Shown piece by piece: positions 33,476 to 34,245 of a DNA stretch of 64,000 bases. The position numbers and the translations under genes are program-made. The stretch's first letter is position 1. Each line of letters begins with the position of its first letter. Source of the DNA: an uncultured Solirubrobacterales bacterium (GTDB taxonomy: Bacteria > Actinomycetota > Thermoleophilia > Solirubrobacterales > JBBDJG01); NCBI GenBank assembly GCA_963716195.1, contig OY970293.1:1014119-1078118 (forward strand), read 5' to 3'. The notes under the pieces were generated by a model, which worked only from the letters and a program-made list of their open reading frames with translations, searched no databases and had not been told where the DNA came from.

Positions 33476-34245
33476 GATGGAAATCGTTGCCCCTTGTCAC
33501 AGTAATGTGACAAGTGCATCTGGCTATATGCTGGAAAACCCGAGTATCCGTCCGGTACTCGCCCTAAGGTGATTCCTCTAACCAAGGAGGGTTGCCGGTG
33601 GGCAGTGACAATCCGGACGGTGCGGAAAATCAGCAGGAAAGGCTGATCAAGCTAGGTTGGGTTATTGGTTTTGTAGACGGAGAAGGATGCTTCTCAATCG
33701 GCTTCGTCCGGCAACCCTGTCGGACCCGCCGGAAAGGCTACAGAGCCGGCTATCAGGTGTTCCATCGATTCGTGGTCACGCAAGGTGCTCGTAGTAAGGC
33801 CTGCCTCGAGGACATAAGAAGCTTCTTCGGGGTCGGCAATCTTTACGAGAACAGGCGACACGATAGTCATCGAGAGCATCTGATCCAGTACCACGTGAGC
33901 CGTCGAAAGGACCTCCTGGGAGTGATCATTCCGTTTTTCCGGGAGCACCCACTTCGGAGCTCAAAGCAAAGGGACTTCGAGACCTTTGCGCGGTGCTTGG
34001 AGATCGTTGAAAGCGGGCGGCATTTGAGCTCTGAAGGGCTCATAGAGATCGCTGTCCTCGCAGAGACGATGAACCGTCAAAAGCCCAGAGGTGACTTGAT
34101 CAGAATCCTCAGAGGCCATACGCCAGGCACCCTGGACACTGGGTGAAGAGATGGTCCCTTCTGCATGGCGACATGCAGGGATGGCGCAGTGCGGCTAGAG
34201 GATGTGCCGTCCGTCTAACAGAAGTGACACGTTAGGCAAGACTAA
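33476..34245 (+). mobile_element. Homing-endonuclease-bearing intervening sequence (group I-like intron) at 23S position equivalent to E. coli U1931|A1932
   Basis: It separates ...TAACTATAACGGTCCTAAGGT from AGCGAAATTCCTTGTCGGGTAAGTTCCGACC..., which are contiguous in E. coli 23S. It contains a LAGLIDADG ORF and two GNRA-capped hairpins (33493-33514 loop GTAA; 34161-34178 loop GCGA). It is visibly more AT-rich than its flanks. The last nucleotide is A, not G. Confidence 0.8.
33592..34146 (+). CDS. LAGLIDADG-family homing endonuclease, single-motif (homodimer-type, I-CreI/I-CpaI-like)
   Basis: Motif LGWVIGFVDGEGCFSI near the N-terminus and family-typical downstream pattern (LIQYHVSRRKDLLGVIIPFFREHPLRSSKQRDFETFARCLEIVESGRHLSSEGLIEIAVLAETMN). 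SD AAGGAGG lies at 33584-33590. GTG 33598 (7-nt spacing) is a better start than the TTG 33592 used by the track. Confidence 0.85.
   Translation: MPVGSDNPDGAENQQERLIKLGWVIGFVDGEGCFSIGFVRQPCRTRRKGYRAGYQVFHRFVVTQGARSKACLEDIRSFFGVGNLYENRRHDSHREHLIQYHVSRRKDLLGVIIPFFREHPLRSSKQRDFETFARCLEIVESGRHLSSEGLIEIAVLAETMNRQKPRGDLIRILRGHTPGTLDTG

Follow-up and report, generated by a model that had tools for sequence, protein, structure and literature searches.

Introns inserted at position 1931 of the 23S rRNA (L1931) and encoding LAGLIDADG proteins have been described in bacteria, and also in archaea and organelles. Those known in Thermotoga, Simkania, and Synechococcus have ORFs extending into the core (PMC1995217), and rRNA introns with LAGLIDADG_1 genes were found in CPR (Patescibacteria) at positions 1917, 1931, 1952, and 2593 of the 23S rRNA (Tsurumaki et al. 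2024, PMC11270868). The locus presented here lies in the window (i.e., the whole stretch of 64,000 nucleotides that was analyzed) from an uncultured Solirubrobacterales bacterium, and shares with the L1931 introns of Thermotoga (I-TnaI, 5gkk) and Synechococcus C1/C9 the insertion site, the group I core, and a single-motif ORF entering this core. It differs from the published descriptions of these introns in its length (770 vs. 666–700 nt), in that of its protein (182 vs. 162–167 aa), and in having a P2 helix, extra P9.1 and P9.2 hairpins, a UAAGR tail, and a terminal A. Some related loci of about 705 nt (L051, L062, L064, L066, L068, L071, L078, and L080) look Thermotoga-like, with a 3-bp P9.0 and a terminal G.

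The SnLSU.1 intron of Simkania negevensis, which occupies the same site (L1931, the I-CpaI target site) in a bacterial 23S host, is said, in work of Everett et al. from 1999, to belong to subgroup IB4 and to encode a single-motif LAGLIDADG protein. With 654 nt and a protein of 143 aa (PMC1995217, Table 1), this intron is shorter than that of the window; it was reported not to be spliced in vivo. The Coxiella burnetii intron Cbu.L1917, a "natural splice mutant," has an A at the last (omega) position as the window intron does, but it occupies another site, L1917, and lacks an ORF, whereas the window intron carries an ORF at L1931; it was described as unique, whereas non-G ends are in the majority in the large family of the window intron. 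The CPR introns include the same site and the same Pfam family, LAGLIDADG_1 (PMC11270868), and CPR loci are present among the relatives of the window intron (L007, L024, L027, L028, L030–L032, L045, L075, and L076), although the host of the latter has a high-GC genome of about 3.9 Mb, in contrast with the reduced genomes of CPR.

On direct reading, exon 1 (...GGCCGTAACTATAACGGTCCTAAGGT) stops at 33475 and exon 2 (AGCGAAATTCCTTGTCGGGTAAGTTCCGACC) begins at 34246, so that a 770-nt insert (33476–34245) lies precisely between E. coli positions U1931 and A1932 of an otherwise complete 23S rRNA gene, as an earlier note on this DNA had claimed. The Rfam bacterial LSU model spans 31442–35521 from end to end (2683 bits), with a single large insertion of about 770 nt at the 33475/34246 point. 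The boundary is unambiguous, since the universal junction of CCUAAGGU with AGCGAAAUU is restored by one split only. The same gene carries a second, ORF-less group I intron, L2500 (34816–35121), and its exons are 88–92% identical to those of Solirubrobacterales/Thermoleophilia MAGs, which places the host roughly; 16S primers specific for Rubrobacter do not match. The earlier description of the insert as more AT-rich than its flanks is correct with respect to the exons, but the difference is marginal (54.8% GC vs. 58.6% and 57.4%); the non-rRNA remainder of the window is at 68.8%. The features of the locus are as follows.

33476–34245, plus strand: group I intron at the L1931 site, IB4-type family, 770 nt (exon flanks, LSU insertion, RF00028, and family covariation)
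33473–33478, plus strand: 5' strand of P1, exon GGU (U1931 = 33475) and intron GAU, with partner GUUGCC at 33486–33491 and a U.G at the splice site
33484–33491, plus strand: internal guide sequence UCGUUGCC, serving in P1 (as its 3' strand) and in P10, and pairing continuously with the ligated exons GGU-AGCGA
33493–33514, plus strand: P2 hairpin with GUAA tetraloop, CUUGUCACA/UGUGACAAG read directly
33519–33524, plus strand: 5' strand of P3, UCUGGC (partner 34122–34127)
33529–33534, plus strand: 5' strand of P4, UGCUGG (partner 33630–33635, within the ORF)
33539–33561, plus strand: 5' strand of P5 and P5a hairpin, CGAGUA...UACUCG read directly
33563–33596, plus strand: sub-lineage-specific insertion with splice-junction copy, Shine-Dalgarno sequence, and guide copy
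33598–34146, plus strand: intact gene for a 182-aa LAGLIDADG homing endonuclease of the single-motif type, from a GTG start codon to a TGA stop codon
33623–33638, plus strand: 3' strand of P5 (33623–33626), J5/4, 3' strand of P4 UCAGCA (33630–33635), and putative 5' strand of P6 GGA (33636–33638)
34106–34127, plus strand: putative 3' strand of P6 UCC, J6/7, 5' strand of P7, and 3' strand of P3 GCCAGG (34122–34127)
34128–34145, plus strand: P8 hairpin CACCC...GGGUG, its 3' end overlapped by the ORF stop codon
34146–34157, plus strand: J8/7 and 3' strand of P7 AAGAGAUGGUCC, in which C34156 pairs with G34114
34161–34178, plus strand: P9 hairpin CUGCAUG-GCGA-CAUGCAG, with GNRA loop GCGA
34179–34237, plus strand: peripheral hairpins P9.1 (34179–34212) and P9.2 (34213–34237), from the minimum-free-energy fold
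34238–34245, plus strand: 3' tail AAGACUAA, read directly, last base A34245 at the omega position
34246–34250, plus strand: start of exon 2, AGCGA (from A1932), which pairs with the guide sequence in P10

The pairings were compared in 70 relatives in the case of the helices and in 57 in that of P1 and P10, while the insertion site and the last base could be checked at 76 loci. In P1, the two G-C pairs are kept in 56/57 relatives and a U.G (or U-A) pair in all 57; U33475 stands opposite G33489 as a U.G wobble, which is present as such in 55/57. P10 consists of 5 bp between UCGUU and AGCGA, the successive positions being paired in 54, 54, 52, 49, and 32 of the 57 relatives. P2, one of the two GNRA hairpins correctly noticed by the earlier note (the other being P9), is visibly compensated in the alignment, and some relatives have no P2. 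P3 is paired in 69–70/70 relatives with TA/GC/CG exchanges, and the inner P5 pairs (CCG/CGG) in 66–68/70 with C-G/U-A and G-C/G-U changes, while P4 is paired in 70/70 but is near-invariant and thus shows conservation, not covariation. The 5' strand of P7 consists of G34112, the bulged A34113, G34114 (the G of the guanosine-binding site), and GCCAU; its first five pairs are present in 66–70/70 relatives and the sixth in 54/70, with a C-G/U-A exchange, and the guanosine-binding pair G34114-C34156, next to the bulged A, is G-C in 65/70. P8 is paired in 63–70/70 relatives with many pair types, and P9 in 69–70/70 with compensatory changes such as CCCUACG/CGUAGGG and CCUCAUG/CAUGGGG. The minimum-free-energy fold of 34144–34245 yields P9.1 and P9.2 (z = -3.1), which are missing from the short canonical relatives. 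We only infer the P6 strands, GGA and UCC; an initial P6 model (GAGGGUU/AAUCCUC) was dropped because its 5' strand falls in a window-specific insertion.

The compensatory changes in P3, P7, P8, and P9 confirm, at the level of comparative sequence analysis, that the insert is a group I intron. The search with RF00028 gave a group I match (26.0 bits, E 2.3e-4) in which the R and S elements are aligned, the AAGAGAUGGUCC region fitting the "S" element, but the match does not reach the gathering threshold (50 bits); the L2500 intron scores 29.9 bits. This model is poorly sensitive to L1931/IB4 introns, which it misses (Nawrocki et al., PMC6125680). The low score is the one point in favor of a reading with no intron at all, i.e., an expansion segment typical of the lineage or an intervening sequence processed by RNase III. 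The probability of this reading is negligible: the expansion segment, which the earlier note had set against its own proposal, is ruled out by the covariation behind the group I core, the LAGLIDADG gene inside the insert, and the identical site across unrelated phyla, and no long terminal stem joins the ends of the insert.

The gene features reported earlier were found as described, i.e., AAGGAGG (33584–33590) upstream of GTG 33598 and an ORF of 182 aa with the motif LGWVIGFVDGEGCFSI, and the ORF does match a LAGLIDADG profile: Pfam LAGLIDADG_1 (PF00961) gave 66.8 bits (E 3.6e-18, cut-off 23.1) in one stretch covering residues 25–134, i.e., a single domain, the query being the 184-aa TTG-start ORF (33592–34146), from whose numbering 2 is subtracted to obtain that of the GTG-start protein. 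The 182-aa protein is identical to an NCBI/ENA entry (P0001). Sequence matches in the PDB include the halves of I-PanMI and I-OnuI (E 1e-33 to 1e-24), the window protein aligning to each half of these two-domain enzymes, and I-TnaI (5gkk, E 5e-25), which ranks first among the single-domain enzymes of solved structure. In the Foldseek search, 5gkk came first (E 9e-10, 37% identity), with a probability of 1.00 to both I-TnaI and I-OnuI; the protein model used, in which the LAGLIDADG alpha-beta-beta-alpha-beta-beta-alpha fold is putative, is of medium confidence (pLDDT 68), and its N-terminal helix is poorly modeled. Judging from its nomenclature and from Table 1 of PMC1995217, I-TnaI is the endonuclease of the Thermotoga naphthophila L1931 intron. 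The earlier assignment to a group I intron at the I-CpaI/Simkania/Thermotoga site is borne out. The catalytic acidic residue expected at the end of the LAGLIDADG helix is present (GFVDGEG), D27 being invariant in 22/22 aligned homologs.

The dN/dS values of the endonuclease gene range between 0.11 and 0.28, and on sequence grounds the gene is under purifying selection. Since the ORF opens within the P5 extension and runs as far as J8/7, it has sequence in common with P5', P4', P6, P7, P3', and P8; the segment 33623–33638 lies wholly inside codons A-E-N-Q-Q-E. The synonymous rate is 0.08–0.22 in codons 1–19 vs. 0.5–0.7 in the middle of the gene. Upstream of the start codon, the insertion 33563–33596 contains the Shine-Dalgarno sequence, a duplicate of the 5' splice junction (CCUAAGGUGAU, 33563–33573), and a copy of the guide, GUUGCC (33591–33596). 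The 11-mer CCUAAGGUGAU occurs twice in the window (0.00 expected), and the whole insertion is shared with L102 only; neither L103 nor any of the 76 loci has it.

The genome scan, run on species-representative genomes, identified at least 476 related loci; the genome of the window itself was not among the matches, the best of which is 70% identical. The carriers include Solirubrobacterales/Thermoleophilia, Acidimicrobiia, CPR, Gammaproteobacteria, Gemmatimonadota, and others, and dozens of the loci are in Actinomycetota (Solirubrobacterales, Thermoleophilia, and Acidimicrobiia). Protein homologs number 4250, many of which bear the JGI label "LAGLIDADG endonuclease," and most of them are on contigs of about 1 kb. 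The suggestion of a new host lineage therefore does not stand, although in our literature search we met no account of such introns from Actinomycetota. In all the relatives checked (76/76), the intron is inserted between U1931 and A1932; the fact that this site is shared across phyla points to homing and horizontal spread, and the same invariant rDNA target gives no support to the idea of a new specificity variant. Apart from its missing terminal G, the window intron is a typical representative of a known family that is very widespread.

The last base of the window intron is A, not the canonical omega-G that introns of this type normally require for splicing. The earlier note did not mention this, nor the overlap of the ORF with much of the ribozyme core, nor the second intron. 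Among the 76 relatives, it is A in 28, G in 28, C in 13, and U in 7, i.e., other than G in 48, whereas all the control introns (22/22 neighboring introns and the L2500 intron of the window) end in G. The tails of the relatives consist of a conserved UAAGR, 3–6 variable bases, and then the last base. Since the nearest relative, L103, differs from the window at the last base only (CTAG vs. CTAA before the exon), A34245 is the omega position. In the window clade, a P9.0 was looked for between J7/9 (C-N-U) and the tail, and no register gave consistent pairs. Shifting the splice site to regain a terminal G is impossible in the window, where one split only restores the rRNA, and a shift of 1–2 nt would do so in few relatives only; pairing of the tail with the guide sequence or with the 3' strand of P7 was rejected too, neither being kept in the relatives. 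The minimum-free-energy fold puts GACUA opposite UGGUC.

It might be argued that the true omega-G is G34240 of UAAG and that ligation there leaves the final 5 nt, ACUAA, in the rRNA. The UAAG is conserved while the bases beyond it are free to vary, and the CUU following P7 in the window could pair with AAG; however, the middle pair of this putative P9.0 is mismatched in most relatives, the P10 partner is AGCGA and not ACUAA, and L103 carries a G at the very end. Moreover, a search for GGTCCTAAGGT-N(1-10)-AGCGAAATTCCTTG in 241 million metagenome records gave 19 matches, none of them tail-like; they are mostly 1-nt inserts in contigs with other single-base indels in the conserved flanks, and such short inserts at 1931 look like sequencing noise. 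This shifted ligation is very improbable.

The explanation that we regard as likely is that of a mobile IB4-type L1931 group I intron with a homing endonuclease, which would be spliced despite its omega-A, slowly or with help. We infer the steps of splicing, cleavage, and mobility as follows. The single-motif enzyme would act as a homodimer, by analogy with I-CreI and I-TnaI, and would cut the intron-less 23S rDNA between ...GGTCCTAAGGT and AGCGAAATTCC... (the predicted intron-less target of the 182-aa protein being GGTCCTAAGGTAGCGAAATTCC), whereupon double-strand-break repair would copy the intron in. The core from P3 to P9 would fold, UCGUUGCC would align exon 1 (GGU, with the U.G wobble) beside exon 2 (AGCGA), and the 5' splice site would be attacked by a guanosine held in P7, whose G-C binding site is intact. 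With A in place of G at its end, exon ligation at U1931/A1932, the least certain step, is expected to be slow or assisted, but not abolished; the omega-A intron Cbu.L1917 of Coxiella is the precedent. A maturase-like activity was reported for the Thermotoga neapolitana protein (PMC3984707).

Several observations count against this explanation: the omega-A, the failure to find a convincing P9.0 pairing in the window clade, the tail from UAAGR to the exon that varies between 3 and 6 nt, the RF00028 score below the gathering threshold, the pLDDT of the protein model, and the Simkania intron reported unspliced at L1931. The non-G last base in the window and in the 48 relatives, the variable tail length, and the lack of a P9.0 in the window clade would also fit an intron that is not ligated out, and either is kept in the mature 23S rRNA or undergoes the GTP step only, giving a 23S rRNA in two fragments, while the endonuclease maintains mobility; a precedent in Simkania at L1931 is indicated by the title of Everett et al. 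1999 ("An unspliced group I intron in 23S rRNA," as cited in PMC11270868). This reading is unlikely in our view, since the P10 complementarity to exon 2 is kept, although it is useful for ligation only, the core outside the ORF (P9, P2, and the 5' strand of P3) is conserved with compensatory changes, and 1931 lies within a universally conserved region of the 23S rRNA. In addition, the omega-A intron Cbu.L1917 of Coxiella reportedly does splice (Raghavan et al. 2007, 2009). Two short ENA contigs, L100 and L101, were considered as evidence of excised RNA and rejected, since both are scaffolds from DNA metagenomes and stop within the intron.

Returning to an intron that is spliced despite its omega-A, the P7 binding pair is A-U in L028, L031, and L033 and U-A in L020 and L021, with U as the last base in both lineages, while introns ending in C retain the G-C binding pair; this is the pattern that base triples of the U·A-U and C+·G-C types would produce. 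We tentatively suggest that a large L1931 family might have naturally given up omega-G, either because the nucleotide pocket was re-specified or because ligation became omega-independent, the window intron (omega-A, G-C) being an example. A scan of viral_contigs for further introns with altered binding pairs gave no matches, and no description of a family-wide loss of omega was found in the literature search.

The intron and its homing endonuclease in themselves add little, since nothing about the insertion site, the fold, or the family of the enzyme departs from the textbook, and relatives abound in public soil and groundwater genomes. Yet rRNA introns of this type escape the Rfam gathering threshold and break rRNA contigs in metagenome assemblies, and can distort rRNA-based surveys. 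That so much of the family lacks omega-G could interest ribozyme biologists: if these introns splice, they would be natural experiments on the second step without G, and if they do not, many soil bacteria would be using ribosomes whose 23S rRNA retains an intron, or is broken, at a position that is conserved universally.

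A single rRNA operon was identified in the window with the Rfam rRNA models, the 23S rRNA gene being 4080 nt long as compared with the 2925 positions of the model:

29652-31201, 16S rRNA gene
31442-35521, 23S rRNA gene
34816-35121, second group I intron of the 23S gene, 306 nt, ORF-less, between U2500 (34815) and C2501 (35122)
35623-35739, 5S rRNA gene

Exon 1 (...ACGGTCCTAAGGT) was read directly as ending at 33475 and exon 2 (AGCGAAATTCCTTG...) as beginning at 34246, and the alignment with the LSU model shows one large insertion of about 770 nt at 33475/34246; counting from the loop of helix 69 places the break between U1931 and A1932. 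Since the universal CCUAAGGUAGCGAAAUU is restored by this split only, the boundaries of the insert are unambiguous. The direct reading and the alignment bear out the earlier note, according to which a 770-nt insert splits the gene after U1931, and the 182-aa ORF (GTG 33598 to TGA 34146), the AAGGAGG motif (33584-33590) and the two GNRA hairpins it described are all present. The insert was also said to be richer in AT than its flanks, which is correct as to direction, the difference being slight (54.8% GC vs 57-59% in the exons). Among the MAGs retrieved, the nearest to the host in the 23S exons belong to Solirubrobacterales/Thermoleophilia, at 88-92% identity, and Rubrobacter genus-specific 16S primers found no match in the window 16S within 3 mismatches.

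The search with the Rfam group I model RF00028 proposed in the earlier note gave an alignment of the insert covering the P1, P2, P3, R and S elements, at a score (26 bits, E 2.3e-4) under the gathering score of 50. RF00028 has been reported to recover none of the LSU/1931 introns that are found by the IB4 subtype model (Nawrocki et al., PMC6125680). In view of the low score and this reported blindness, the fold was tested on 70 relatives.

Pairing of the ribozyme helices in the relatives
P3: paired in 69-70/70; TA/GC/CG exchanges
P4: paired in 70/70; invariant
P7: paired in 66-70/70 at five of six pairs and 54/70 at the sixth; C-G/U-A exchange
P8: paired in 63-70/70; many pair types
P9: paired in 69-70/70; compensated

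The U at the end of the 5' exon pairs with a G of the internal guide sequence UCGUUGCC (33484-33491), which shows unbroken pairing with the ligated exons GGU/AGCGA (P1 and P10). The G-binding pair of P7 is intact in the window intron (G34114-C34156, A34113 being bulged). The 18 nt of the P9 hairpin CTGCATGGCGACATGCAG (34161-34178) are identical in most of the Actinomycetota, Gammaproteobacteria, CPR and other members, an identity exceeding the needs of base pairing; other clades carry fully compensated versions. As regards the second intron, it ends in G, contains the S-like element GGUGAAGUUAUAGUC and also scores under the gathering score of RF00028 (29.9 bits, E 5.5e-6). It is absent from most of the related loci, since the exon 2 alignments break at about 572 nt, and may be shared by one of them (L006).

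P4' (UCAGCA, 33630-33635) lies inside N-Q-Q codons and the stop codon within P8/J8/7, and the ORF therefore spans the P5 extension, P5', P4', P6, P7, P3' and P8. ORFs extending into the core have already been described in cyanobacterial L1917/L1931 introns (PMC1995217). In agreement with this overlap, the synonymous rate, which amounts to 0.5-0.7 in mid-gene, decreases 3- to 6-fold at both ends of the gene (33598-33654 and 34090-34146), where it overlaps the ribozyme helices, reaching 0.08-0.22 in codons 1-19 and 0.22-0.34 in codons 165-182. The profile search confirmed that the ORF encodes a LAGLIDADG protein, as had been claimed: a single Pfam LAGLIDADG_1 domain was detected at 66.8 bits (E 3.6e-18), the cut-off being 23.1 bits. 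In a sequence search among solved structures, the ORF aligned to each half of the two-domain enzymes I-PanMI, I-OnuI and I-SmaMI (E 1e-33 to 1e-24) and also matched the single-domain 5gkk (E 5e-25). The latter, "homing endonuclease I-TnaI," was the top Foldseek match (E 9e-10, 37% identity) of a protein model of medium quality (pLDDT 68) built from 22 homologues; from its name and Table 1 of PMC1995217, we take it to be encoded by the L1931 intron of Thermotoga naphthophila. All the aligned homologues carry the motif aspartate (GFVDGEG), and the dN/dS values of 0.11-0.28 (codons 20-160, eight relatives) indicate that the endonuclease is under purifying selection.

Just upstream of the GTG, the window intron and L102, which with L103 is its nearest relative, have in common a sub-lineage-specific insertion of about 30 nt (33563-33596; about 205-240 in L102), which supplies the Shine-Dalgarno sequence AAGGAGG; relatives without it show no obvious Shine-Dalgarno sequence. 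In the window, it contains second copies of the 5' splice junction, CCUAAGGUGAU, and of the guide GUUGCC (GTTGCC in DNA), the junction copy being the exact 11-mer CCTAAGGTGAT of 33468-33478 (0.00 expected by chance); the L102 copy, GGUGAC, is the same as L102's own junction GGU/GAC. The insertion may act as a decoy P1 or as a site of internal processing; that such processing frees the endonuclease mRNA is speculation.

A G at the omega position, the last base of the intron, is normally required by group I chemistry. The window intron ends in ...GGCAAGACUAA/AGCG, omega thus being A, and among 76 relatives the last base before AGCGAAATTCC is A in 28, G in 28, C in 13 and U in 7. A terminal G is present in all of the other introns inserted 10-25 nt upstream of L1931, after about 1911, 1917, and 1923 (22/22; loci L005, L010, L012, L018, L019, L020-L022, L025, L029, L040, L041, L043, L044, L046, L048-L050, L052, L062, L066, and L074), which leave exons down to 8-20 nt. 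Because these introns and the second intron of the window all end in G, the non-G ends are no boundary artefact. Only the short relatives of about 705 nt are fully canonical, keeping both a clean 3-bp P9.0 and the terminal G: the triplet following P7 pairs with the one preceding this G in 9/9, with clear covariation (UAG/CUA+G, ACG/CGU+G, GAG/CUC+G, AUA/UAU+G, UCC/GGA+G). The long forms, including that of the window, have extra P9.1 and P9.2 hairpins, 3' of which a conserved UAAGR (or GUAACAG) is followed by 3-6 variable bases; a search for a pairing partner of the UAAGR tail found none. In seven long forms, J7/9 is complementary to the last three bases and the terminal base is C. Since the window intron ends in CUAA, L103 in CUAG, and L102 in CCAAA, the last base switches between G and A over short evolutionary distances. 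The P7 binding pair is changed by double substitution in five introns (A-U in L028, L031, and L033; U-A in L020 and L021), all ending in U, as against 2/65 of those with G-C; as only two independent lineages are involved, one of them AT-rich, this association is a lead rather than a result, and compositional bias may lie behind it. The use of an upstream G as the 3' splice site is disfavoured, since a scan of metagenome records for a short insert at 1931 in rRNA genes or transcripts gave noise only.

There is hardly any doubt about what the element is. Its endonuclease, which probably acts as a homodimer, would cut the 1931 site of 23S rDNA without the intron, and the repair of the cut would copy the intron in; the intron RNA would fold as an IB4-type ribozyme using GTP in the first step, and the P1/P10 guide would then align U1931 and A1932 for ligation. 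The conservation of P10 and of the core outside the ORF points to continuing selection for ligation. Given the omega-A, ligation is expected to proceed slowly or with the help of a protein. This overall picture of a homing intron with an IB4-type ribozyme and ligation still under selection is quite probable, and we lean slightly towards continued splicing of the window intron. The intron might instead be retained in the 23S rRNA, or the 23S rRNA fragmented, and the precedents point opposite ways. The omega-A intron of Coxiella reportedly still splices, slowly. The L1931 intron of Simkania, by contrast, is unspliced according to the title of Everett et al. (1999), cited in PMC11270868. Since the conserved P10 and core point to selection for ligation, retention or fragmentation appears unlikely.

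The protein search gave 4250 homologues, most of them 182 aa long, 69-81% identical and carried on contigs of about 1 kb, many being labelled "LAGLIDADG endonuclease"; the identical protein (P0001) has an existing NCBI/ENA entry, on a contig of 3.88 Mb. At least 476 related loci were confirmed by a scan of one genome per species, the best 80 of which were kept. The hosts belong to Solirubrobacterales, Thermoleophilia, other Actinomycetota, Acidimicrobiia, Gemmatimonadota, Gammaproteobacteria, Capsulimonadaceae, Acidobacteriota, Chloroflexota, Dormibacteraceae, and several CPR groups. The insert lies exactly at CCTAAGGT/.../AGCGAAATTCC in every one of the 76 loci whose two exon motifs could both be found. 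In a Candidatus Peribacteria locus (L007), the enzyme is 64% identical to that of the window and the local 23S exon matches, from partial blastn alignments, only 69% and 82%; such related enzymes in hosts of different phyla fit horizontal spread of the intron by homing.

L1931 introns occur in green-algal chloroplasts, at the I-CpaI site. They have also been described in Simkania, Thermotoga, and Synechococcus (PMC1995217), CPR bacteria (PMC11270868), and archaea (PMC6125680), and the intron protein of Thermotoga neapolitana has maturase-like activity (PMC3984707). Our literature search found no description of L1931 LAGLIDADG introns in Actinomycetota, although public databases hold many such sequences. 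The new host lineage suggested earlier is not upheld, related sequences being abundant in public data and the site and type known elsewhere, and nothing points to the new endonuclease specificity variant that was also suggested. The window intron is a further case of the known L1931 intron type and involves no new host principle.
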